From positions 1 through 13,698 of the forward strand of contig JAZKIQ010000009.1 of the NCBI GenBank assembly GCA_040384765.1: a stretch of DNA of 13,698 nt, read 5' to 3'. Made by a program: the position numbers and the translations under genes. This document shows positions 2,961-13,480 of this stretch, piece after piece. The stretch comes from Patescibacteria group bacterium. GTDB taxonomy: Bacteria; Patescibacteriota; Minisyncoccia; Phycocordibacterales; JBBUBG01. Numbering within the stretch: the stretch's first letter is position 1; each line of letters opens with the position of its first letter. A model generated the notes under the pieces. That model ran no database searches, was not told the origin of the DNA, and saw only the letters and a program-made list of their open reading frames with translations.

Positions 2961-5423
2961 ATGGCAAAAGAGAAAGAATCAAAACCAAACAATCTTCCTG
3001 AGCGCGGCATCGTCGATATCGACATCGTGCCGGAAATGCGCACCTCATTCCTCGACTACGCCATGAGTGTGATCGTGGATCGTGCACTTCCCGACGTGCG
3101 CGATGGGCTAAAGCCAGTGCACCGCCGTATCCTCTATGCCATGCATGAGCTTGGGCTTACCTCTTCTGCAAAGTTTCGCAAGTCCGCAACGGTAGTCGGA
3201 GATGTGCTTGGTAAATATCATCCGCACGGTGATATCTCTGTGTATGACGCAATGGTAAAGATGGCGCAGACGTTTTATATGCGCTACCCGCTTGTGCAAG
3301 GCCAGGGCAACTTCGGCTCGATCGATGGAGACTCGGCTGCTGCTATGCGTTATACCGAGGCGAAAATGTCTCGTCTCGCTGGCGAGCTGTTGCGCGATAT
3401 CGAAAAGGAGACGGTCAACTTTGTTCCAAACTACGACAACTCTCGCAAAGAGCCTGCAGTGATGCCTTCGGTGGTGCCAAACTTGCTCCTAAACGGCACG
3501 CTTGGTATCGCGGTAGGTATGGCGACAAAGGTGCCGCCACACAACCTCCGCGAGCTCATGGACGCGCTTGCGTACCTTCTCGACAACCCAGGAGCGACGA
3601 CCGACGACCTTATGCAGTTTGTCAAAGGCCCTGACTTTCCGACAGGCGGCATCGTATTTAATACAAAAGATATCCATCACGCATACGCAAATGGTCGCGG
3701 TGGTGTGACCGTGCGTGGCGAGGCGGAGATCCTCGAGACGAAGAGCGGCATGTTCCAGATCTTGATCACCTCGCTTCCGTATCAAGTGAACAAAGCCGAG
3801 TTTATTATTCACGTGGCAGACCTCGTCCGCGAGAAAAAGCTCGAGGGAATCAAAGATATCCGTGACGAATCGACGCGCGACGTGCGTATTGTGATCGACC
3901 TCAAGTCCGGCACCTATCCGCAGGCCGTGCTCAACTTTATCTACAAACATACTGAGCTTGAGCAGGTGTTCAACTACAACATGCTCGCACTCTCAGACGG
4001 CGTGCCAAAGCTCCACTCGCTTTCCTCGGTGCTCAATGAGTTCGTAGCGCACCGCAAAGATATTATTCGCCGCCGCACTGAGTACGATCTCAGGAAAGCG
4101 CTCGAGCGCGAGCATATTTTGATCGGTCTTACGATTGCACTTGATCATATCGACGAGGTGATAAAGACGATCAAGCAGTCCAAAGATACTGCTGAAGCGC
4201 ATGCAAACCTCGTAAAGAAGTTTAAGCTTTCAGATATTCAGGCGACTGCGATCCTCGATATGCGCCTGCAGAAGCTTGCCGGACTCGAGCGCAAAAAGAT
4301 CGAAGATGAGCTCAAGAGTGTGCAAGAGCTCATCAAAGAGTTGAAAGAGATCCTTGCGAGCGCAAAGAAAGTGCTCACTATCATCAAAAAGGAGTTCATG
4401 GAGATTGCCGAGAAGCACGGCGATGACCGCCGCACCCGTGTGGTGAAAGGTGCTGCAAAGGCGATCAACATCGAAGACCTCGTACCAGACGAAGAGTCGG
4501 TGCTTGTGTTCACGCGTGGTGGCTATGTAAAGCGTACGCATCCTACCGAATATCGCGCACAGCGCCGCGGCGGCGTGGGCGTAATGGACCTCGATACAAA
4601 AGAGGAAGATTTCATTTCACTTTTTCTTACGGCAAATACGCACGCAGACCTTCTCTTCTTTACCGATCGCGGCAAGGCATACCAGATCAAGATGTACGAG
4701 ATTCCGGAAGGGAAGCGCGCTACAAAGGGCAAATCGATCATCAACTTTATTTCACTCGGTGATACTGAGCGCGTAACCTCGATCCTTGCGATGCCGAAAG
4801 ATGTGAAGGGCACCTCGCTCTCGCTCCTTATGGTGACAAAGCTTGGTGTTACCAAGAAAGTTGCCGCAGACTCCTTTACCGATGTGCGCCGCTCGGGCCT
4901 CATTGCTATTACGCTCGAAGCAGGAGACGAGCTTCTCTCGGCAAAGCTCTGCCAGAAGAGCGACGACATTATTCTCACCACTTCAGAGGGTCAGTCGATC
5001 CGATTTAAAGAGTCTGATATTCGCCAGATGGGCCGCACAGCTATGGGTGTGACCGCCATGAAGCTTGGCAAGAAAGGCGATATTATTGTTGGTGCAGATA
5101 TCGTAAAGGGCGGCACCAAAGATGCTGAGCTCTTGGTGATGTCCGCAAACGGCTACGGCAAGAAAACCAAAATTACGGAATATAAGGTGCAGAAGCGTGC
5201 AGGCTCGGGTATCAAGGCAATGAATGTAACACCAAAGACGGGCAAGCTGATGGTCTCAAAGGTTGTCACCGAAGCTGAATCGGAACTGATCGCCATCTCG
5301 AAGAACTCCCAGGTGATCCGCATCGGCCTCGACGAGGTCCCATCGCTCGGGCGCTCGACACAGGGTGTGCGTATTATGAAGCTTCGTGAAGGGGATAGTA
5401 TTGCTTCGCTCACGTGTTTGTAG
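2961..5423 (+). CDS. gyrA: DNA gyrase subunit A
   Basis: The 820-aa product has a topo II A N-terminal domain with the active-site region [15 protein letters not shown]-like [17 protein letters not shown], and [11 protein letters not shown]. The C-terminal beta-pinwheel repeats include a GyrA-box-like QRRGGVG. Confidence 0.92.
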
Positions 5424-5573: not shown

Positions 5574-6638
5574 ATGAAGCAAAAACTGATTCTTCTTATT
5601 GTGTTTGTGGGAGTTTTCTTGGCTATTGGGTATTCGACTGGCATGAGGGGGGTGGCGCAAGAAGGCGTGGGTGCTTCTTCTGAGCAATCGGGCAGTGCTC
5701 GACTGTCAGATGAGGCGATTCGACACGCGTCGATTCCGAATCTCTTTTTCGGCGAACCTTTCGGAAACTACAGCGTTCTCGATGGGGGTGTTGCCTACTA
5801 TACCGAGTCTTCGAAGTCTCCCAATGGTCAAACACGTAGTGCAACAGCGACCGACTATTTTACCGCTATCGACACGAGCGTCTCGTTTGCGCATGACGAC
5901 CTCGATGGAGACGGTGACCCAGATACCGCCGTTATTATGCTGAGCCGCTCCGGAGGTACGGGTACGTTTTATGATCTCGTTGTATTCCGCAATGAGAACG
6001 GGCAGCCTCTCTTTGTGGATCGCGCAATGGTTGGAGATCGGATTGTTGTTCAATCACTTTCGATCAAAAATGGAATCGTTACTATCGACATGCTTGATCA
6101 TGGACCTGGTGAGCCGTTGGTGAGCGCAACATTTCCAAAGACCCTTCAATTTCAACTTATGAATGGAAAGCTCACTCTCATGCAGCTTGCGCAGGGAGAT
6201 GAGGTCGAGGTTACTGGTGAGCAAGCAGCCGTTGCCGCTGTCGCAAAAACATCGATTGCTGCAAAGATCGAGCAGCTTGCACCAGGCACCTTTACTCTTT
6301 CCCGAACGAACTCTTCTGTTGACGATGGTCTCCCTCACATCTACTCCCGCTATTACGGATCTAAGAAAGGATATCTCGTCGAGGTTTACCTCGATAGAGA
6401 GGGTGAATGCTACCAGGGAAAATTCACGTGTCTTATGACGAAGCTTTTCTCAGGAGAGGAGCTAAAGAAAATGTGTACATCTTACTATGATTCTGTGGAG
6501 GAATGCATCAGCACCACGACTGTTGCCACATTTGATGTAAATGAAAAAGGGATCGTGGGTAACTTTCGCATGGAAAGCGCAATCCGGAGCGATGCACAGG
6601 CGCGAGAAGAATCTCTTAGGGCAGCTGGATACTACTAG
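5574..6638 (+). CDS. Secreted or membrane-anchored hypothetical protein of 354 aa with an FG-GAP/VCBS-like calcium-binding-type motif
   Basis: It has an N-terminal hydrophobic signal/anchor, KLILLIVFVGVFLAIGYS. The motif FAHDDLDGDGDPDTAVIM...GTGTFYDLVVF resembles a single FG-GAP-type repeat. A Cys-containing C-terminal region follows. Confidence 0.55.
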   Translation: MKQKLILLIVFVGVFLAIGYSTGMRGVAQEGVGASSEQSGSARLSDEAIRHASIPNLFFGEPFGNYSVLDGGVAYYTESSKSPNGQTRSATATDYFTAIDTSVSFAHDDLDGDGDPDTAVIMLSRSGGTGTFYDLVVFRNENGQPLFVDRAMVGDRIVVQSLSIKNGIVTIDMLDHGPGEPLVSATFPKTLQFQLMNGKLTLMQLAQGDEVEVTGEQAAVAAVAKTSIAAKIEQLAPGTFTLSRTNSSVDDGLPHIYSRYYGSKKGYLVEVYLDREGECYQGKFTCLMTKLFSGEELKKMCTSYYDSVEECISTTTVATFDVNEKGIVGNFRMESAIRSDAQAREESLRAAGYY

Positions 6639-6713: not shown

Positions 6714-7244
6714 ATGGCTTTTCTCACGCCCTCGCATGCGATAGCGCCGCTCAATATCCATGAGGGGATGCGTGTGGCAGATTTTGGCACGGGGGGTGGC
6801 GCAATGGCGATAGCTGCAGCGCGCCACGTAGGGCATTCGGGCAAGGTGTACGCGATTGATATACAGAAGGGGTTGCTCGAAAAGCTTGCTCGCCATGCGA
6901 CTGATCTGCACCTTTCAAATCTCGAAGTGGTGTGGGGTAATATCGACCACTCACATGGCTCGAAGCTTGCTCCTGCATCCGTAGATGCGGTGATCATTGC
7001 AAACGTACTGTTTCAGTCCGAGCATGTTGGGCATCTTGTTGCTGAGGCGAAGCGCATCTTAAAGCCACATGGCAAAGCGCTTGTCATCGATTGGACGGAT
7101 TCGTTTGGGAATATGGGCCCCGCACATGGGCATGTGGTAAAGGAGTCCGAAGCAAAGCTTTTTTTTGCCGATGGGGGATTTGTGTTTGAAAAAAACGAGC
7201 CGGCAGGGGACCATCATTACTCTCTTCTTTTCCATAAACCATGA
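6714..7244 (+). CDS. Small class I SAM-dependent methyltransferase. A GTG at 6690 is an alternative start
   Basis: It carries motif I, VADFGTGGGAMAIAAA, then an acidic motif-II-like KVYAIDIQ and VDAVIIANVL...LKPHGKALVID, which is typical of the Methyltransf_11/25-like Rossmann fold. Its stop overlaps the start of the next gene (ATGA). Confidence 0.65.
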   Translation: MAFLTPSHAIAPLNIHEGMRVADFGTGGGAMAIAAARHVGHSGKVYAIDIQKGLLEKLARHATDLHLSNLEVVWGNIDHSHGSKLAPASVDAVIIANVLFQSEHVGHLVAEAKRILKPHGKALVIDWTDSFGNMGPAHGHVVKESEAKLFFADGGFVFEKNEPAGDHHYSLLFHKP

Positions 7245-8581
7245 ACAAAGGTTCCAACTTCCAGCTCGTCGTTCTCGCATTTTTCGGCGTCATCCTTGTT
7301 GCGGGTGTTCTTCTTTTTGCAGGCTTTGGCGGAGGGGGCGGCCTTGGGGGTGCCGGTCGCGGTGCTACCCTCACTCTCTGGGGTACGGTGCCCGATAGTG
7401 TGATGGCCCCTCTTCTCAATACGTTTTCCCAAGAGTACCAAGATTCAATCGGACAGGTGCTCTACGAAGAGAAGCGTGCAGATAGCTTTGAGAGTGATCT
7501 GGTAAACGCGCTCGCCTCGGGCAAAGGTCCGGACATGGTGATCATCCCCCAGGGGCTTTTGGTGCGCCAGGCCGACAAACTGTTGCCTCTTTCGTATGAG
7601 CAGTTTACTCAGCGTAAATATCTCGATGCCTATACAGACGGTTCGGATATCTTTCTCACCAACAATGGCATTCTCGCGCTTCCCCTCTCGGTAGACCCGG
7701 TGGTTTTGTACTGGAATAAGCAGCTTTTCTCGGGAGCGGGCCTCACCTCTCCTCCGCGTTTTTGGGATGAGCTGCTCACGCTCCCTGAGAAGCTCGTGGT
7801 AAAAGATGTTCGTGGCACTATCTCGCAAGCGGCCATCTCTCTTGGTGGCTATCGCAATGTAACCCGTGCAAAAGAGACGCTCTCCTCGCTTTTTCTGCAG
7901 GTTGGCGACTCGATTACCGAGCCGGTCTTTAGCGAAGCGGGTCTTGGGGTGAATCCTGTGCTTGGAGATTCAGCTGCACGCGGAGCGGGTCCCGCCGAAT
8001 CAGCACTTCGCTTCTATGTACAGTTCGCAGACCCTGCAAAAGCGGTGTATAGCTGGAACAGCGCATTGCCGCAGTCGCGTGATCTCTTTGCGCGCGGGAG
8101 CTTGGCGATGTACGTGGGTGTTGCAAGCGACCTCGCAGCAATCCAAAGCGCAAATCCGCATCTCTCGTTTGACGTAGCTCCGCTTCCACAGGTGCGGCCA
8201 GTCAGCGGTGGCCAGCCAAATGCACGGGTGTACGGCAACTACGGAGCACTTGCTGTTCTTCGTGCGGGGAAAAACCCTGCGCTTTCAATGCAGGCGGCGT
8301 TTCTCCTTTCTACCACCAACTATGCGGAGGCGTATGCGCGTGCCCTCGGCTTGGCACCAGCTCGCCGCGACCTTCTTTCGCAAAATACAAGCGGCAATGC
8401 GTTGCGAGCCGTTGTCTTTAAGGCTGCTCTCAACGCTCATGGATGGCTCGATCCGTCCCCGCTCGGTACCGATGCGATATTTCGAAGCATGGTAGAATCT
8501 TTGGTATCAGGAGGTATCACTGAGCGCCAAGCGCTTTCAGAAGCTCGCGCCGATATGAGTGCCCTTGGACAACAACGATGA
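7241..8581 (+). CDS. Extracellular solute-binding protein family-1-like (MalE-like SBP fold) protein. It is membrane-tethered by an N-terminal TM helix followed by a Gly-rich linker
   Basis: A TM helix, LVVLAFFGVILVAGVLLFAGF, is followed by GGGGGLGGAG. The SBP_bac_1 hallmark stretches are present: TLTLWGTVPD, ..GKGPDMVII.., LALPLSVDPVVLYWNKQLFSGAGLTSPPRFWDELL, and MYVGVASDLAAIQSANPHLSFDVAPLP. It overlaps both neighbours by 4 nt (ATGA). Confidence 0.6.
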   Translation: MNKGSNFQLVVLAFFGVILVAGVLLFAGFGGGGGLGGAGRGATLTLWGTVPDSVMAPLLNTFSQEYQDSIGQVLYEEKRADSFESDLVNALASGKGPDMVIIPQGLLVRQADKLLPLSYEQFTQRKYLDAYTDGSDIFLTNNGILALPLSVDPVVLYWNKQLFSGAGLTSPPRFWDELLTLPEKLVVKDVRGTISQAAISLGGYRNVTRAKETLSSLFLQVGDSITEPVFSEAGLGVNPVLGDSAARGAGPAESALRFYVQFADPAKAVYSWNSALPQSRDLFARGSLAMYVGVASDLAAIQSANPHLSFDVAPLPQVRPVSGGQPNARVYGNYGALAVLRAGKNPALSMQAAFLLSTTNYAEAYARALGLAPARRDLLSQNTSGNALRAVVFKAALNAHGWLDPSPLGTDAIFRSMVESLVSGGITERQALSEARADMSALGQQR

Positions 8582-9009
8582 AAATGAGCCTGCGTTCATG
8601 TGCCGCACTATTTCTTTCCGCGCTTTTCTTGCTTGGTCCTTCGCTCGCTCTTGCCCTTGAGCCGAACGCCCCGCTCTCTGGTGCGCCGGTAAATCTGCAG
8701 GCACCATGCGGCAATAGAGCGGGAGGTACTGGAGAAACGCGAGAGTGCACCGTTGCGGACTTCATCAATTTCGTTGGGAGTATCGTTCAGTTTTTGATTT
8801 TTCAGATCTCGATCCCTCTCGCGGTGCTCGCTTTTGTGGTGCTTGGCTTCCGACTGGTGGTGAGTCAAAACAAGCCGACCGTGTATGCTGAGACCAAAAA
8901 ATATCTGATGGACCTGGTGCTCGGTATTTTTCTCGTCGTCTCTGCGTACGCGATCGTATCGTTTATATACAGCTTTGTAGCGGAGCCGTACCGCATATTT
9001 TTTAGATAA
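8578..9009 (+). CDS. Pilin-like small membrane protein, paralog 1, resembling the VirB2/TrbC and T4SS-pilin family. It has a signal peptide and two TM helices
   Basis: A signal peptide, SCAALFLSALFLLGPSLALA, is followed by two hydrophobic helices, SIVQFLIFQISIPLAVLAFVVLGF and LVLGIFLVVSAYAIVSFIY. These are separated by a short polar loop (SQNKPTVYAETKK). The mature N-region has two Cys (PCG...ECT). It is translationally coupled to the upstream SBP-like gene. Confidence 0.55.
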   Translation: MKMSLRSCAALFLSALFLLGPSLALALEPNAPLSGAPVNLQAPCGNRAGGTGETRECTVADFINFVGSIVQFLIFQISIPLAVLAFVVLGFRLVVSQNKPTVYAETKKYLMDLVLGIFLVVSAYAIVSFIYSFVAEPYRIFFR

Positions 9010-9014
9010 TAGTA

Positions 9015-9374
9015 ATGAAAAAAAAGCATCTCCATGGTTTGGCTGGGGCAGCACTCGGATACCTCTTGTTTCCAGCGATTGTGTTTGCCCAGATCGTGAA
9101 CCCATTTAAGGGCGTCGAAAACCTCACCGGTCAGAATGGGCTTCTTGAAAAGCTGATCTCTATTGCTCTCCAGATCGGTATTCCGATCATGGTGCTTATG
9201 ATCATGTGGATTGGCTTTCAGTATGTGTGGGAGGCTTCAAAGGGCAAGGCGGCAAACCTGGCAACCATCCACAAAAATTTCCAATTCACGCTTCTTGGAG
9301 CGGCGCTTCTTCTTGGCGCCTATGTGATTCTTGAGATTTTGCAGAACACCTTTAGATCGCTTCAATCACGCTAA
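9015..9374 (+). CDS. Pilin-like small membrane protein, paralog 2, resembling the VirB2/TrbC and T4SS-pilin family
   Basis: It has a signal peptide with an AxA-type cleavage site (AIVFA|QIV). The helices are IALQIGIPIMVLMIMWIGFQYVW and FTLLGAALLLGAYVILEIL, separated by the loop EASKGKAANLATIHK. It starts 5 nt after paralog 1. Confidence 0.55.
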   Translation: MKKKHLHGLAGAALGYLLFPAIVFAQIVNPFKGVENLTGQNGLLEKLISIALQIGIPIMVLMIMWIGFQYVWEASKGKAANLATIHKNFQFTLLGAALLLGAYVILEILQNTFRSLQSR

Positions 9375-9378
9375 TATC

Positions 9379-9873
9379 ATGAAAAAACTGTTTTTTATAG
9401 TAAGTCTCGTCTTCTCGTTGCTTGCTCCTACTGCCATTGCAATGCCTGTGTATGCTGCACCTGGGGATGAATTTCAGAATGATCTTTTTACCAGCCAAAA
9501 TAGCCAAGGGACATACTACAAGGAGTTTACGCTAGGCTTGCAGCAGGGTGGCGGAGGATCCGGTGCTCGGGGCACCTGTGCTAGCTCGGGTGCCCGCATA
9601 CGGGATCTCAAAGGTCTCCTCTGTTATGCGCAGGACATCATCAACTACAACATCATTCCGCTCATTTTTGCGTACGCTCTGCTGATGTTCCTGTGGGGTG
9701 TCGTCTCGTATATCCAAAAGCCAGACCTCGCCGAGCAGGCAAAGCAGAAGATTTTATATGGGGTGTTCGGGCTCGCGGCAATGGTGTCTGTATGGGGATT
9801 GGTAAACCTGGTGGTGAGAACGTTCAATCTTGATAATACGCCTATTCGCGTCCAAGATATCCAGGTTCGCTAA
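9379..9873 (+). CDS. Pilin-like small membrane protein, paralog 3. The ORF track begins at 9331, but the Met at 9379 (MKKLFFIV...) is the likely start
   Basis: It has a signal peptide, MKKLFFIVSLVFSLLAPTAIAMPVYA|AP. A mature domain follows with a Gly-rich segment and two Cys. The TM helices are IIPLIFAYALLMFLWGVVSYIQKPD and ILYGVFGLAAMVSVWGLVNLVVRTF. The motifs YI(Q/R)KPD and VWGLVNLV are shared with paralog 4 at both the protein and nucleotide level. Confidence 0.55.
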   Translation: MKKLFFIVSLVFSLLAPTAIAMPVYAAPGDEFQNDLFTSQNSQGTYYKEFTLGLQQGGGGSGARGTCASSGARIRDLKGLLCYAQDIINYNIIPLIFAYALLMFLWGVVSYIQKPDLAEQAKQKILYGVFGLAAMVSVWGLVNLVVRTFNLDNTPIRVQDIQVR

Positions 9874-9994
9874 AACATTCTAGAAGCCCCATCTTCTTTG
9901 TTGTCTTCGTCAGGAAAAACCTCAACGTACCTTTAAAAGTACGTCTCAGCTTTTCCCTCCTAGCCGCCTCGAACCTGGGGCTTCTAGAATGTTT
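9873..9994 (+). repeat. Inverted-repeat element, copy C. It has perfect 20-bp terminal inverted repeats (aaaacattctagaagcccca / tggggcttctagaatgtttt) enclosing about 82 bp
   Basis: The left arm at 9873-9892 overlaps the last base of the TAA stop of pilin paralog 3. The right arm is at 9975-9994. The interior shares ctttgttgYcttcg with copy B, and the termini share a ttctaRaa core. Confidence 0.6.
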
Positions 9995-10004
9995 TGGTTG
10001 GGAT

Positions 10005-10046
10005 GATATCCACACTCGGGCAGCCCCTTAGGGCGGCCCGAGTGGT
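10005..10046 (+). other. Compound GC-rich hairpin: a 9-bp stem, CACTCGGGC/GCCCGAGTG, encloses a nested CCC-tta-GGG mini-hairpin, and the outer stem extends imperfectly. No U-tract follows
   Basis: cactcgggc at 10012-10020 pairs with gcccgagtg at 10034-10042. The flanks tgatatc/gtatca pair with one bulge. The hairpin lies between IR element C and the pilin paralog 4 start. Confidence 0.4.
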
Positions 10047-10085
10047 ATCATAAAGTAAATCGATTAACGCATATAAGCATTTTCC

Positions 10086-10460
10086 ATGAAAAATACGCTC
10101 ATTAGGTGGCTCTCTGTTCTCGGGATATTCTTCACCCCAGCATACGCATACGCTCAGTCATCGACCGGTGCCATCGGTATTATCGACCGCGTGCAGTTCA
10201 TCATGAACACTCGTGTAGTGCCGATCATTATCGGTATTGCGCTTATCTACTTTTTGCTCGGAGTGCTTGAGTATATTCGAAAGCCAGACGGTATCATTAG
10301 CGAAACGGCTCGTTCGCGGATGGTGTACGGACTCATCGGTCTTTTTGTGATGATCTCAGTATGGGGACTCGTAAATCTTGTTGGTGATACCTTTGGTATT
10401 CAGAGTGGAGGACAGGCTCCGATCCTTCCCATCGTCAACCCCAACAAACAAGGGATATAG
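10086..10460 (+). CDS. Pilin-like small membrane protein, paralog 4
   Basis: It has a signal peptide, LSVLGIFFTPAYAYA|QSS. The TM helices are VVPIIIGIALIYFLLGVLEYIRKPD and MVYGLIGLFVMISVWGLVNLVGDTFG. It is the closest paralog of gene 3. A TATAAG box ends about 8 nt before the ATG, and there is no SD. Confidence 0.55.
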   Translation: MKNTLIRWLSVLGIFFTPAYAYAQSSTGAIGIIDRVQFIMNTRVVPIIIGIALIYFLLGVLEYIRKPDGIISETARSRMVYGLIGLFVMISVWGLVNLVGDTFGIQSGGQAPILPIVNPNKQGI

Positions 10461-10462
10461 AG

Positions 10463-10572
10463 TTCTAAAATCCTCACCTGCTTTGTTGCTTCGCTCCGGG
10501 GCTCATTCACAAGGCAAGTTCGCCTTGCTCAATCGCTCCTCACTCGCGCCGCGCATCTGAGGATTTCTAGAA
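10463..10572 (+). repeat. Inverted-repeat element, copy B. Its 14-bp terminal stem (ttctaaaatcctca/tgaggatttctagaa) has one bulged C
   Basis: It starts 3 nt after the pilin paralog 4 stop and ends 26 nt before the paralog 5 ATG. With copy A it shares ctaaaatc, cctgctttgtYgc and cgcgcatc in the same order. The 4-nt segment adjacent to the shared termini is compensatorily changed relative to A. Confidence 0.6.
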
Positions 10573-10598
10573 TCTCTCTATAAAGCAACGTTTGTCCA

Positions 10599-10841
10599 AT
10601 GGTAAACCTGATCGACCGAATTAAGGAGAATATCCTCAACCCCATCATGGGGATCATGCTCACTGTTGCGCTCGTGGTGTTCTTGATGGGGATCTACCGA
10701 CTGTTTATTGCCAAGGATAACGAGGCGTTGGGTTCCCAGGGGCTTAAAAATGTGACGTGGGGTCTTGTGGGCTTTGCGATCATCGTGTCTGCTTACGGAA
10801 TTCTCAGTTTCGTGTGTGTGACCGTGACAGCGTGCTCGTAG
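10599..10841 (+). CDS. Pilin-like small membrane protein, paralog 5. It lacks an N-terminal signal peptide and may be truncated or degenerate
   Basis: It has two TM helices, IMGIMLTVALVVFLMGIYRLFIA and VTWGLVGFAIIVSAYGILSFV. Its C-terminal VSAYxIxSF is shared with paralog 1. No signal peptide is present, and no SD sits within normal distance. Confidence 0.45.
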   Translation: MVNLIDRIKENILNPIMGIMLTVALVVFLMGIYRLFIAKDNEALGSQGLKNVTWGLVGFAIIVSAYGILSFVCVTVTACS

Positions 10842-11057
10842 AAAAGTCTAGAGGATGTTTTAAAAGCCTAGATCCGAGGCTCAGCTGCGAATACTTGGAG
10901 CAGTTGAGGGCCGGAAGGAGCAGAGGCGACTGAGGCGGGGTCGAGAACTTTTTGAGTACAAAAAGATTCGTGACACGAGGAAGGAAAAGGTGAGCTGTAC
11001 ATAGGGTACAGTGAGCGTTTTCTGACCGAAGGTAACGACGGAGGTGGGCTTTTAAAA

Positions 11058-11103
11058 TATTCTCTAAAAAAGAAAAAGGGCGGTCACTTGTCAGTGACCG
11101 CCC
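11058..11103 (-). terminator. Rho-independent terminator for the minus-strand operon: an 11-bp perfect stem with a 4-nt loop, then an oligo-U tract on the minus-strand transcript
   Basis: gggcggtcact at 11078-11088 pairs perfectly with agtgaccgccc at 11093-11103. On the minus strand the hairpin is followed by TTTTTCTTTTTTAGAG, the complement of plus-strand 11061-11077. It lies 22 nt past the stop at 11125. Confidence 0.7.
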
Positions 11104-11124
11104 TTTGCCGTTGCGCAAGACGCG

Positions 11125-11970
11125 CTACGGTTTGATCTCGATTTCGAGAGTGGCCTCGTTTACAACGCGGCCAGCTTTCTCTTCGAAGAGATCACCTCGG
11201 TAGAGATTGGGGCGGACGAGGCGGAGGTTTACGAACCTGCCGCCGATCGTCTTTGTGCCATCTTCCGAGATGTGCCAGGTCCAGGTACCGTGTGCAGTGC
11301 CATCCGCCCATTCGAGGACGGTGAACTCGCGCGCACGGCTTTCCGGAGTTTCGGTTGCCTTCTCCTCGAGCTTCCACAGCACTCCGGCGTCGAGCGTGAA
11401 CTCGAACCGTTCGTAGCTTGTTGGCGCTATGCCGCGACTCCTTCTGTTTGGCAGGAGCCGGGCGGTTGCGCGTCCGGTTATCTTGCCAGGAGGAGGAAGT
11501 GTTTCGGGTGGAGCGGTCTCGATCGGTGTTTCCGCAGCGCTCGCTTCCGGAGAAGCGGGAGCCGTGGAGGGCACCTCGGTCGGCGAAGGAACGCTTGCCG
11601 ATGGCGCACTTGGAGAGCTCGGAGGTGGCGTTGCTGCTACCTTCGGACTCTCGGTTGGCTTCTGAGCTGCTGGCGATGCCGAGGGCTTCGCCGGGACACG
11701 CTTTGTGTACCAGGTGGCCTTCTTGGTGACTAGCCACCTCTTGTCGATCTCCCGCCAGAGCACTGTGGCGAGAAAGATGATGAGCAGCCCCACGAGCGGC
11801 GTCTTCCATGAGAGGAGAGCCGCAAGAATGGGATACTTCTCCTTGTCCTTGACGAGCGCTTCCGGATCGAGGCGCCACGAGTCGTGGCTCTCGATCGGAC
11901 TCTCGACATGGGGAGTGTACCCCGGGCTCGGGGCAGCTGCCGCCGGGTCCGGATTACTCGTTGTCGCCAT
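11125..11970 (-). CDS. Membrane-anchored protein with a long Pro/Ser/Thr/Ala-rich low-complexity linker and a beta-rich C-terminal domain of about 110 aa. It may be an NfeD-like partner of the upstream SPFH protein. The start is trimmed from the ORF-track 12054 to the ATG at 11970
   Basis: GGAGG (plus-strand cctcc at 11976-11980) lies 5 nt before the ATG at 11970-11968. There is one TM helix, YPILAALLSWKTPLVGLLIIFLATVLW. An approximately 85-aa linker follows, PAKPSASPAAQKPTESPKVAATPPPSSPSAPSASVPSPTEVPSTAPASPEASAAETP.... The C-terminal domain runs ERFEFTLDAGVLWKLEE...GRVVNEATLEIEIKP. The gene overlaps the upstream gene by 17 nt. Confidence 0.55.
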   Translation of the reverse strand: MATTSNPDPAAAAPSPGYTPHVESPIESHDSWRLDPEALVKDKEKYPILAALLSWKTPLVGLLIIFLATVLWREIDKRWLVTKKATWYTKRVPAKPSASPAAQKPTESPKVAATPPPSSPSAPSASVPSPTEVPSTAPASPEASAAETPIETAPPETLPPPGKITGRATARLLPNRRSRGIAPTSYERFEFTLDAGVLWKLEEKATETPESRAREFTVLEWADGTAHGTWTWHISEDGTKTIGGRFVNLRLVRPNLYRGDLFEEKAGRVVNEATLEIEIKP

Positions 11971-13480
11971 TCTGTCCTCCGTTCTGTTTCCGTTCCTTGT
12001 TGCGCTGCTGGCGGAGCTGCTTCTTGTTTGGCTTCCTGCCGGACCGCTTCCCATCTCGCGATGGAGGGCGATCCGCGCCTTCTTCGCCCATTGCAGCCTG
12101 CGCTCCTGCGAGCCCCGCCGTCAGGTCCTTCTGCTCCTCGGGAACAGTAGGACCGGCGTTGAAGCTTACATCGCGCACGGATGCGGTGATCCCGGTATCG
12201 GGATCTTCGGCAGCCGAAAGCTCGTATGCTTTCGTCGGGTCTACACCCTGTGCGACCAGCTCTTTGGCACGCGTGTTGGTGCCTTCGCGCTGGCGTTTGA
12301 GCTGCTTCTGCTGTGCCTCCTCTTGTGCTTCCTTGGCACGAGTAGCTTGCACTTCAGGAGAGGGCAGCACCGACTTGAGGGTGATCGAGTTCTCTTCCTT
12401 GGCGGATGAGAACTCGACCCCGTTCTCACGGATGAGCTCGTTGATCTTTTCTGCGGTTTTGCGCAGGAGATCAATGCACTTCGGTTCGCGCTTCACGATC
12501 TCGTCTTCGGTGAGCTTCTTGAAGCCTTCGCGGAGATTCTCGGTGAGAATTCCGCGGATGCGTTCGTGAAGCTCCTTGTACGGGATCTTGAGCACCTTGC
12601 GCCCATCCTCGACGTGAGTGAGGACGAATGCTTCGACCGTCAGGTAGAGGCCGTCGGCGCACTGAAACTTCTCAGACTTCGCCTGGCCCTTCTTCCCCTT
12701 TTCTTTTTCTGCGGGTGGGGGTTCTTCCCAGCTGACGTGTGTGATGTGCGACTTGGTGTTGACCACCACTACTCTAGTTGCCCCGTAGGGCAGCCAGAAG
12801 TAGAAGTACACGTGGAGGGGGAGTGCTGTTCCGAAGATCACTTCTCCGAGGAAGTAGTCTTCGGGTACGAAGCCGATGCTGCGGATTCCATACAGGATTC
12901 CGCCCCACCACACAAGTGCCCACACGATCCATGAAAACAGATCGAGCAGGAGCACGGGGTGATCGGAGAGGAAGCGGTTGGGGAGTGTTTCCCCGAGGAA
13001 CGAAGCGAGCCACGGCACCGTACAGGTGAGGTAGAGCACGAAGAGCGGCCACGTCCAGAGGAATCCGAAGATCTTCATCTTCGGATTCCAGTTGTGACCT
13101 CTCTCTGAGAGTGCCCAGAGCCACGCTGTTGTTCCGGCAAGGATGCCGATCGCAACGACGGTAGCTTCGAGCTGGAGTCCGGAGAGGCTGCACCAGAGTA
13201 TCGCCGCGATCGCGGCGGACAGGAAGAGCACTGCTCCCACCATCCGGACGATCGTTGCAATCGGCCCATCCTGCTTGGCTTCCGCTTCCCACCACGCCTT
13301 GAGGCGAGTGAAAAATCCTACCGAAGGCGGGGTGGCTGGCGTCGGTGCGTTCGGGTCCGTAGGTGGCAGGCTCGGATTTCTCCAAGATCGCCACACTTCG
13401 TGGATCTTCCACAGAGTCTGGCCCACGATCGCGATTGCCGCGATCGCAAACAGCACATCGAGAATTTTTTCCTTCTCCAA
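11954..13480 (-). CDS. Polytopic membrane protein fused to an SPFH/band-7 (stomatin/HflK-like) domain, with a basic disordered C-terminal tail. It uses a TTG start
   Basis: GGGAGG lies 7 nt upstream of TTG at 13480. The N-terminal ~250 aa contain about 6 Trp-rich hydrophobic helices. The region FQCADGLYLTVEAFVLTHVEDGRKVLKIPY...ELHERIRGILTENLREGF...NGVEFSSAKEENSITLKSVLPSPEVQATRAKEAQEEAQQKQ matches the SPFH core, including the conserved I.dI.pP.EV..A...A.RE..A segment. The tail is Lys/Arg/Gln-rich. Confidence 0.55.
   Translation of the reverse strand: MEKEKILDVLFAIAAIAIVGQTLWKIHEVWRSWRNPSLPPTDPNAPTPATPPSVGFFTRLKAWWEAEAKQDGPIATIVRMVGAVLFLSAAIAAILWCSLSGLQLEATVVAIGILAGTTAWLWALSERGHNWNPKMKIFGFLWTWPLFVLYLTCTVPWLASFLGETLPNRFLSDHPVLLLDLFSWIVWALVWWGGILYGIRSIGFVPEDYFLGEVIFGTALPLHVYFYFWLPYGATRVVVVNTKSHITHVSWEEPPPAEKEKGKKGQAKSEKFQCADGLYLTVEAFVLTHVEDGRKVLKIPYKELHERIRGILTENLREGFKKLTEDEIVKREPKCIDLLRKTAEKINELIRENGVEFSSAKEENSITLKSVLPSPEVQATRAKEAQEEAQQKQLKRQREGTNTRAKELVAQGVDPTKAYELSAAEDPDTGITASVRDVSFNAGPTVPEEQKDLTAGLAGAQAAMGEEGADRPPSRDGKRSGRKPNKKQLRQQRNKERKQNGGQNGDNE

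Follow-up and report, generated by a model that had tools for sequence, protein, structure and literature searches.

A tandem array of five pilin-like genes in an operon with a methyltransferase and a carbohydrate-type solute-binding protein in Patescibacteria

What is the role of five small, consecutive pilin-like genes that share an operon with genes for a methyltransferase and a solute-binding protein in a Patescibacterial genome? The locus bears on the wider question of what the T4SS of Patescibacteria and its essential pilin array do, for which a pilus serving as uptake conduit has been proposed in speculation only (PMC12857230). It is proposed here, with a probability of about 0.6, that each of the five genes (g1-g5) encodes a different subunit of a single heteromeric pilus or conduit, which depends for its assembly on a T4SS encoded at another locus and is functionally tied to solute capture.

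The array occupies positions 8578-10841 of the plus strand of the window (the whole stretch of DNA analysed, 13,698 nucleotides), where the first-pass annotation had placed five small paralogous genes with two TM helices each; all five ORFs were confirmed. They are g1 (8578-9009, 143 aa), the first-position protein with a predicted leader, a Cys-x12-Cys loop and two TM helices; g2 (9015-9374, 119 aa) in second position; g3 (9379-9873, 164 aa), of a middle class, with a Gly-rich mature N-region that contains two Cys; g4 (10086-10460, 124 aa) in penultimate position; and g5 (10599-10841, 80 aa), the minimal, leaderless last member. The size range first given, 80-166 aa, is right at its lower end and wrong at its upper one, g3 having 164 aa when read from its ATG, the start used here; its mechanical ORF begins at a TTG at 9331. 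Hydropathy analysis gives each protein two strong TM segments, that is, two hydrophobic helices with a short charged loop, and the AF2 model of g5 is a two-helix hairpin (helices at residues 2-40 and 42-79, pLDDT 85). The N-termini of g1-g4 show K/R residues followed by an h-region and an AxA-type site (by inspection, a heuristic; putative sites ALA/LE, VFA/Q, AIA/M or VYA/A, and AYA/Q), and Sec-type leaders are predicted for them; the class III leader motif of Type IV (T4P) pilins (N_methyl, PF07963) has no match in g1-g5. That g5 has no signal peptide, as had been claimed, is borne out by the in-frame stop at 10581-10583, which makes a leader impossible, and the leader is also missing in about two thirds of the last-position orthologues. 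In the predicted topology both the mature N-terminus and the C-terminus lie outside and the K/R-rich loop in the cytoplasm, which would expose the Cys-Cys loops and also the entire ectodomains found in relatives. First-position homologues with N-terminal ectodomains of 300-650 aa and Fn3-like matches were counted in favour of the outward-facing N-terminus. In the natural poly-pilins P0236, P0239, P0263, P0283 and P0243, a single leader is followed by 5-8 hairpin domains in tandem within one chain.

Our profile searches support the assignment of g1-g5 to the VirB2/TrbC superfamily (PF18895), each as a membrane helical hairpin, in line with the first suggestion of VirB2/TrbC or T4SS_pilin-type proteins whose family is expanded in Patescibacteria. 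Searched against Pfam, the check that the first-pass annotation had asked for, g1 exceeds the gathering scores of both TrbC (PF04956; 31.8 bits, gathering score 27.9) and T4SS_pilin (PF18895; 28.2 bits, gathering score 26.6), and g5 exceeds that of PF18895 (34.5 bits) over profile positions 2-71 of 71. The other three match the same families below threshold: g3 scores 26.0 bits against PF18895, slightly under its gathering score, g4 reaches E 0.0076 with that profile, and g2 reaches E 7e-4 with TrbC and E 4e-25 with a family HMM built with the window genes included. Among the members of syntenic arrays, 137 of 145 match PF18895 (E<=0.001) and 27 match TrbC, and independent precomputed annotation finds PF18895 in all six genes of L083/L084 and of L085. 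A weaker match links g5 to NF045849, a Mycoplasma ICE pilin-like conjugal transfer profile (E 1e-5, 25 bits, below its 40-bit cut-off). The proteins are short and hydrophobic, with scores near threshold, and fold searches on the monomer predictions are non-specific and do not discriminate, all of which would suit unrelated small membrane proteins (holin-like proteins, anchors or stress proteins) whose Pfam matches reflect only TM-helix composition. We regard that explanation as barely credible: none of g1-g5 matches a PHROG at E<=0.01, which also speaks against the holin-like origin raised earlier as a possible refutation, coverage of PF18895 is near full length in g5, the family-built profile finds matches in 37,362 cluster representatives (E<=0.001), and PF18895 is carried by 120 of the 120 best homologues listed, beside the weak NF045849 match of g5.

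The array forms the downstream end of an operon that the first-pass annotation missed, and it is translationally coupled to two upstream genes on the same strand. The first of these encodes a class I SAM-dependent methyltransferase (MTase; 6714-7244, 176 aa; Pfam Methyltransf_31/25/11, E down to 3e-15), for which no specific NCBIfam equivalog was matched. The second encodes a membrane-anchored, MalE-like (family 1) extracellular solute-binding protein (SBP; 7241-8581, 446 aa; SBP_bac_1, SBP_bac_8) with an N-terminal TM segment and Gly-rich linker; among solved structures, its best relatives are SBPs that bind sugars (4r9f, 4qrz). The MTase stop overlaps the SBP start, and the SBP stop the g1 start, each in an ATGA (-4 nt); g1/g2 and g2/g3 are spaced by +5 and +4 nt, and the MTase-to-SBP spacing in most relatives is -4 to +30 nt. 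The same tightly packed order of MTase, SBP and 5-6 pilins is found downstream of gyrA in about 50 Paceibacteria loci, and wherever the DNA downstream of an SBP homologue is readable, the next gene encodes a pilin domain (51 of 51). The SBP-pilin link holds in two genomic contexts, the second being L087/L088: there an SBP with just 30% identity lies between SMC/ComM-like genes, a PF18895 gene follows 5 nt later and a methyltransferase of the same type as the operon MTase is found two genes beyond that. No ABC permease (BPD_transp_1) or ABC_tran gene lies beside the SBP in the window, L083, L085, L086, L087 or L089. Two SBP-pilin fusion ORFs (P0151 and P0224) were also seen; both retain a leader-like remnant at the junction and may be artefacts that arose by a frameshift at the ATGA overlap.

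The wider neighbourhood is conserved too. The block S1(-)-MBL-GyrA-MTase-SBP-PIL x5-6 recurs in about 45 of 80 loci, with five pilin genes in 21 arrays and six in 13, and gene order and number are kept across genomes whose GyrA is 60-75% identical to that of the window. Array neighbours in syntenic loci include HisRS, FtsZ/FtsA, DnaK, IF-2, RbfA and ClpB. It had been noted correctly that a T4SS ATPase or VirB4/VirB6 gene is missing from the window; the same holds in relatives, where no T4SS gene (VirB4, VirB6, VirB3/PrgI etc.) was found within ±10 kb in at least 43 syntenic loci and virB4 is not among the 9-13 called genes on each side in the loci examined. Outside the operon, a convergent minus-strand pair (11125-13480) encodes a Pro-rich membrane protein (11125-12054) and an SPFH/Band-7 protein (11954-13480; Band_7 E 8e-8), and relatives have the same convergent pair beside the array, there with a variable membrane protein ahead of the SPFH protein.

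This setting is the ground of the main rival to a T4SS-assembled structure, a hetero-oligomeric membrane ring or channel that is independent of any T4SS. Five or six hairpins side by side would form a pore or platform of fixed stoichiometry in the cytoplasmic membrane, similar to a c-ring or to a pentameric pilus layer, on which the anchored SBP docks; the result would be a novel solute-uptake or sensing device with only its ancestry in common with VirB2. The strict coupling of the SBP to pilin genes with no ABC permease or ATPase gene nearby, the neighbourhood free of T4SS genes, the copy number held at 5-6 with orthologous positions, the poly-pilins, whose build implies side-by-side packing, and the fusion ORFs all point in this direction. 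Against it, the operon encodes no energy source or gating component, the homologous six-gene array of Saccharimonadia is part of the T4SS locus, and array and T4SS are co-essential (PMC10633639), and the junction remnants leave the fusions open to being artefacts. We consider such a ring possible although unlikely.

Are the five genes interchangeable or specialised? Their paralogy exceeds chance: pairwise phmmer gives 65 bits for g3-g4, 27 for g4-g5, about 19.5 for g3-g5, about 17 for g1-g5 and about 15.5 for g1-g2, against a chance level of <=13 bits among 2,000 shuffled targets, while g2-g3 and g2-g4 are not significant in pairwise phmmer and are linked only via the family profile and orthologues. 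The shared motifs reported earlier were found again, YI(Q/R)KPD and SVWGLVNLV in g3 and g4 and VSAY(A/G)I(V/L)SF in g1 and g5. One interpretation of such an array, offered in the first-pass annotation and in PMC12102498, is a diversifying cassette of interchangeable major pilins that arose by recent duplication and serves antigenic or host-range variation; the variable mature N-regions would suit it, as would the low identity within the array (18-31% in the alignment of g1-g5), which is like the mean mutual identity of 25% in published arrays (Quinonero-Coronel et al. 2025, PMC12102498). The closest relatives, however, are same-position genes elsewhere. The best matches of g1 are position-1 genes (L003, L039, L004 and L012) and those of g2 are position-2 genes (42-56 bits); g3 is closest to position 4 of 6 in L007 and position 3 of 5 in L050, and g4 to position 4 of 6 in L023 (86 bits) and L007 and position 4 of 5 in L050. 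Of the cross-genome best matches of last-position genes, 82% are themselves last-position genes, this position being 78-82% faithful, and a paralog from the same genome outscores every foreign match in only 16 of 190 cases. By these comparisons the duplications are ancient and the paralogs hold their positions, which speaks for specialised subunits with fixed places and not for antigenic variants. With order and number also kept at the GyrA distances given above and no inverted-repeat or recombination switch found, the cassette is very improbable. Positional orthology largely refutes it and is likewise at odds with antigenic variation as proposed in the literature.

The intergenic regions of the array are structured. 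Element E1 (9869-9998, plus strand) starts at the g3 stop codon and has a 23-bp closing stem with TTCTAGAA at both ends (MFE -52.1 kcal/mol, z -8.3; inverted repeat 9872-9896 / 9971-9995); the related E2 (10459-10577, plus strand; MFE -41.8 kcal/mol, z -4.4) starts at the g4 stop codon and shares 81% identity with E1 at the 5' end (D3). Downstream of g5 lie a larger element, E3 (10849-11066, plus strand; MFE -96.9 kcal/mol, z -9.35, 22-bp closing stem), and, between the convergent g5 and P309 genes, a perfect 14-bp hairpin (11075-11106) that is terminator-like, with a T-run on the minus strand. Between E1 and g4, a putative internal promoter region (10006-10051, plus strand) combines a DnaA-box-like ATATCCACA at 10006-10014, an overlapping GC hairpin at 10013-10044 (z -5.5) and a -10-like TATCAT at 10046-10051. 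About 22 of 45 arrays have TCCACA ahead of their penultimate pilin gene, against an expectation of about one, with a -10-like box 30-45 nt after it, and L046, L047 and L051 have a TTGAC(C/G) -35 box as well. Judged from these motifs, g4 and g5 may be transcribed from a promoter of their own, with the conserved DnaA-box-like motif ATCCACA in front of it.

Family membership, topology features, operon packing, conserved synteny, positional orthology and the SBP-pilin link are directly supported, and from them we infer filament formation, T4SS dependence, the subunit roles and a part in solute uptake. In the model that we favour, the five anciently diverged, position-specific subunits would build one heteromeric, pilus-like surface tube or conduit, with position 1 as an adaptor or adhesin-bearing subunit and the penultimate and last genes, under their own putative promoter, supplying the bulk subunits. 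Extraction from the membrane and assembly would fall to the monoderm-type T4SS whose genes most Patescibacteria carry at another place on the chromosome. Because the array is translationally coupled to the SBP and MTase, the structure would work with extracellular carbohydrate capture; the carbohydrate would probably be host-derived, and the MTase may modify a component of the structure. A bolder version, which we hold to be a long shot, is an unrecognised nutrient-capture apparatus of Paceibacteria, a heteromeric VirB2-derived tube or ring of fixed stoichiometry, with one of each paralog per layer and the SBP docked or displayed on it, which would channel host carbohydrate into a cell without a matching ABC permease and draw its two bulk subunits from the internal promoter with its DnaA-box-like operator. 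To the question of the pilin array our analysis adds that the 5-6 paralogs appear to be fixed, position-specific subunits and not variants, that across a whole class the array is separated from the T4SS locus and hard-wired to a carbohydrate-type SBP and MTase, and that it has a putative internal, specifically marked promoter; all three points together speak against the reading as antigenic variation.

Neither the pilin family nor the existence of such arrays is new, tandem VirB2-like pilin arrays having been published for Patescibacteria (PMC12102498, PMC10633639); the operon context differs from those arrays. VirB4 was reported in 2,417 of 3,035 Patescibacteria assemblies, and in 813 of 1,948 the VirB2-like genes were placed apart from virB4; the published arrays were counted within ±20 CDS of virB4, and the Fig. 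S9 legend specifies 'array near virB4' (PMC12102498). In Southlakia epibionticum, six essential PF18895 pilins lie within the T4SS locus (SEML1_0014-0019; Wang et al. 2023, PMC10633639). The present five genes constitute an array as defined in PMC12102498 (>=2 tandem PF18895/PF04956 genes of low mutual identity), and they resemble the published ones in being tandem PF18895/PF04956 genes, 5-6 in number and chromosomal, with about 25% identity and, as predicted here, Sec-type leaders. They differ in belonging to Paceibacteria, in lying >10 kb from any T4SS gene and in being part of an MTase-SBP operon downstream of gyrA; a link to an SBP or gyrA is mentioned in neither PMC12102498 nor PMC10633639. 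Like the VirB2/TrbC/TraA pilins of diderm T4SSs (PF04956), the proteins are small and combine a predicted leader with two hydrophobic helices and a short basic loop, but here the host is monoderm, several fixed paralogs replace one major pilin, g5 is leaderless and the VirB3-B11 machinery is not adjacent. Mbov_0395/MMCAP2_0565 of Mycoplasma ICEs (NF045849) are likewise two-TM proteins, about 80 aa long and associated with a monoderm T4SS, and g5 aligns with 68 of the 80 positions of that profile; theirs is a mobile ICE, whereas the present array sits in a core-genome operon. With MalEFGK-type ABC carbohydrate importers the locus shares a membrane-anchored MalE-like family 1 SBP in a monoderm cell, but this SBP comes without a permease or ATPase gene, and pilin-like hairpin genes stand in the place of the permease genes.

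The array comprises five consecutive plus-strand genes, g1 (8578-9009, 143 aa), g2 (9015-9374, 119 aa), g3 (9379-9873, 164 aa counted from its ATG), g4 (10086-10460, 124 aa) and g5 (10599-10841, 80 aa), and hydropathy gives two strong transmembrane (TM) segments in each product, as the first-pass annotation had described. In line with its claim that all members except g5 carry a leader, g1-g4 have a putative N-terminal leader-like segment and AxA-type sites, and the motifs it quoted as shared between members are found in the window proteins. No leader can precede g5, which begins at the conserved amphipathic region itself: an in-frame stop at 10581 blocks any 5' extension. The assignment to the TrbC/VirB2 (PF04956) and T4SS_pilin (PF18895) families, likewise proposed from the sequence, is secure. 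In Pfam HMM searches two members exceed the gathering scores: g1 scores 31.8 bits with TrbC/VirB2 (gathering score 27.9) and 28.2 bits with PF18895 (gathering score 26.6), and g5 scores 34.5 bits with PF18895, covering profile positions 2-71 of 71; g3 falls slightly below the PF18895 threshold (26.0 bits), and g2 and g4 give sub-threshold matches to the same families. PF18895 is matched by 137/145 array members across loci and TrbC by 27. The family is very large, with 37,362 cluster representatives retrieved at E<=0.001 by a profile of last-position homologues; searched against PDB chains, the last-position sequence profile gave a best E of about 1. The AF2 model of g5 is a two-helix hairpin (pLDDT 85). 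A holin identity was rejected, the five proteins giving no PHROG matches.

The five genes are related to one another, with pairwise phmmer scores of 65 bits for g3-g4, 27 for g4-g5, about 19.5 for g3-g5, about 17 for g1-g5 and about 15.5 for g1-g2, all above the maximum of 13 bits obtained with shuffled sequences. The first-pass annotation had taken motifs shared by pairs of members to suggest successive duplications and had named antigenic variants as one possible use of the array. Recent duplication and antigenic variation are contradicted by all-against-all phmmer comparison between genomes, in which each window gene finds its top matches in same-position genes elsewhere. For last-position genes of five-gene arrays, 82% of best matches are last-position genes of other five-gene arrays, and 78% fall on the last position when the target arrays have six genes; first-position genes are position-faithful in 56-65% of best matches versus 17-20% expected, and middle and penultimate genes match each other across positions. 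A within-genome paralog outscores every foreign match in just 16/190 cases. The last-position family is compact (about 80-95 aa), has invariant P15, F28, G31, G55 and G58, and in about two thirds of its members has no room for a leader. This positional orthology indicates that the paralogs are ancient and are fixed, specialised subunits.

The window runs from an S1 protein gene on the minus strand through genes for an MBL-fold protein, GyrA (2961-5423), a 354-aa protein, a SAM-dependent methyltransferase (MTase, 6714-7244) and a family 1 solute-binding protein (SBP, 7241-8581) to g1-g5 and a convergent pair. GyrA is at most 75% identical to homologues in Patescibacteria MAGs of the Paceibacteria/Parcubacteria type (Taylorbacteria, Kaiserbacteria, Paceibacterota). 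The spacings are -4 nt for MTase/SBP, -4 for SBP/g1, +5 for g1/g2 and +4 for g2/g3, followed by gaps of 212 and then 138 nt, so that MTase-SBP-g1-g2-g3 form one tightly packed unit with g4 and g5 set apart. An HMM of the five core regions, run on 80 GyrA-anchored loci, recovered the S1(-)-MBL-GyrA-MTase-SBP-[pilin x n] block in about 45 loci with GyrA at least 60% identical; within the same 80 loci it was not found 3' of gyrA in Patescibacteria that are less closely related. Arrays have five genes at 21 loci and six at 13, and a separate, independent set of gene calls, with Pfam annotation computed beforehand, places six PF18895 genes after MTase-SBP on contigs DASRDX010000009.1 (462 kb) and JAGWUB010000002.1 (288 kb). 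The MTase gives generic class I matches alone, far under every NCBIfam cut-off. The secreted or anchored 354-aa protein lying between gyrA and the MTase gene (5574-6638) has faint FG-GAP/Dna2_Rift matches, nothing stronger, and a BLASTP comparison with all ORFs from the 80 loci gave no homologue; it looks like a lineage-specific insertion in otherwise conserved synteny. Just downstream of the array, the convergent pair (11125-13480, minus strand) encodes a Pro-rich membrane protein and an SPFH/Band-7 protein, and in many Paceibacteria, e.g. L085 12046-13316, the same place holds a membrane protein of low conservation and then an SPFH/Band-7 protein. The 790-nt interval between the S1 and MBL-fold genes (1248-2039) is richer in GC (0.58) and contains overlapping putative ORFs on both strands (1409-1933 on the plus strand, 1298-1867 and 1588-2031 on the minus strand); the plus-strand ORF, the one tested, gave no Pfam match, nor does it have a homologue in the loci of the relatives.

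The SBP resembles sugar-binding proteins of the MalE type and carries an N-terminal TM anchor. Among 51 loci with readable DNA downstream of an SBP homologue, a pilin gene was detected by HMM in 49, and at the remaining two (L021 and L087) Pfam identifies a PF18895 protein after it; at 33 of these 49 loci, the SBP stop codon is overlapped by the first pilin ORF detected or lies at most 15 nt before its start. The most distant SBP homologue, P0230 (30% identity), is surrounded by L19, cytidylate kinase, SMC and ComM-like genes and still has a PF18895 gene 5 nt 3' and the same type of MTase two genes beyond; the SBP-pilin association is thus independent of gyrA synteny. No ABC permease or ATPase gene lies beside the SBP gene at any locus examined. 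The SBP is fused to the first pilin in P0151 (549 aa) and P0224 (746 aa; L086 1327-3567). Both junctions retain a leader-like segment, so the two ORFs may be real fusions or may have arisen artefactually from a frameshift at the ATGA where the stop and start codons overlap.

In first-position proteins the amphipathic helix is immediately preceded by a Cys-x(6-12)-Cys loop, seen in g1, the pilin part of P0151, the protein after the SBP in L021 and the first domain of each of three poly-pilins (P0263, P0243 and P0239). Several early-array proteins with a pilin module have N-terminal ectodomains of 300-650 aa, some with Fn3-like (Pur_ac_phosph_N) matches, and a VirB2-like hairpin at the extreme C-terminus (L081 14364-16073, L021 8536-9966, L064 15281-17476, L059 14384-15697, L012 14740-15852 and L005 14379-15497). 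They are mostly first-position, the L012 protein being second and that of L081 coming after the SBP but before the first pilin that the HMM detects, and they look like adhesin-bearing pilins. From the Cys loop and the ectodomains, the mature N-terminus is predicted to be extracellular and the K/R-rich loop to lie inside, as in VirB2 and TraA pilins, whose loop between the helices is on the inner side of the membrane.

We propose that each of g1-g5 most likely encodes a different subunit of a single pilus-like, heteromeric conduit, which would be built by a type IV secretion system (T4SS) encoded elsewhere and would work with the co-encoded SBP and MTase. No VirB4, VirB6 or VirD4 gene was found within ±10 kb in 43 loci whose large ORFs were clustered and Pfam-annotated; the neighbours there include HisRS, FtsZ, FtsA, DnaK, CysRS, IF-2, RbfA, ClpB and an ABC exporter. 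This lack of nearby T4SS genes lends support to the main rival, a T4SS-independent membrane ring or channel, as do natural poly-pilins in which 5-8 tandem hairpin domains follow one leader. Including P0231, the poly-pilins (P0236, P0239, P0263, P0283, P0243 and P0231) are single chains of up to 820 aa and up to 16 predicted TM helices, in which a single N-terminal leader is followed by 3-8 PF18895 hairpins in tandem, joined by short linkers. The poly-pilins, of which we found no description in the literature searched, imply side-by-side packing of hairpins in fixed stoichiometry. VirB4 is present in 2,417/3,035 Patescibacteria assemblies (PMC12102498).

The penultimate gene is preceded in many arrays by a gap of 79-136 nt, and about 22 of 45 loci, versus about one expected, have (A/T)ATCCACA on the coding strand of this gap (the window and L007, L012, L013, L017, L019, L020, L025, L027, L034, L042, L044, L046, L047, L049, L051, L053, L057, L059, L067, L068 and L082), with TCCCCA at five further loci. 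In the 113 kb of intergenic DNA from all loci, ATCCACA has just 30 occurrences, of which at least ten are the penultimate-gene site. The motif is followed at a distance of 30-45 nt by a -10-like box, with a TTGAC(C/G) -35 box also in three loci; the window copy, ATATCCACA (10006-10014), is followed by TATCAT (10046-10051), 34 nt before the g4 ATG. A generic sigma-70 promoter and terminator scan of the window gave background level. The motif and -10-like box in the preceding gap suggest that the penultimate and last genes are probably a separately controlled unit. The motif agrees with the DnaA-box consensus, TTATCCACA, at 8 to 9 of 9 positions, and we guess that DnaA may be the binding factor; in the window and L025 the motif falls within an inverted repeat.

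At or just after the g3, g4 and g5 stop codons begin E1 (9869-9998), E2 (10459-10577) and E3 (10849-11066), three elements that are related to one another and strongly structured, with z-scores of -8.3, -4.4 and -9.35 and closing stems of 18-23 bp. The ends of E1 and E2 include a common TTCTAGAA, present in three copies in the window versus 0.23 expected and absent outside the elements. An Rfam scan of the window (E<=1) gave no matches. The elements were not found in the closest relatives, and gaps before the penultimate gene in relatives are mostly not structured like E1 (z -2.5 to +1.5). The terminal 16-mer of E1 matches 86 stretches of a metagenome collection, singly except for two same-strand matches in L101; this is consistent with chance, and by 16-mer matching alone no inverted pair, as a dispersed MITE would give, was found. 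Candidate explanations for E1-E3 are stabilisers of mRNA 3' ends, processing sites and a MITE-like insertion of local extent.

Neither the pilin family nor this kind of array is new: VirB2-like pilins (PF04956/PF18895) in arrays of 2-11 genes have been described in Patescibacteria, with no mention of an SBP or gyrA (PMC12102498). In Southlakia epibionticum, six essential PF18895 genes (SEML1_0014-0019) lie inside the T4SS locus (PMC10633639), and the pilus as uptake conduit is a speculation in a review (PMC12857230). The Paceibacteria-wide MTase-SBP-pilin operon, the array's separation from virB4, the positional orthology among its paralogs and the marked internal promoter appear to be undescribed. 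Beyond Patescibacteria, g5 weakly resembles NCBIfam NF045849, the 'pilin-like conjugal transfer protein' of Mycoplasma ICEs, with a near full-length match of 25 bits (cut-off 40). To our knowledge, the usual statement is that Gram-positive systems are without VirB2 homologues; against it, this match hints that VirB2-like hairpins occur in other monoderm T4SSs too.
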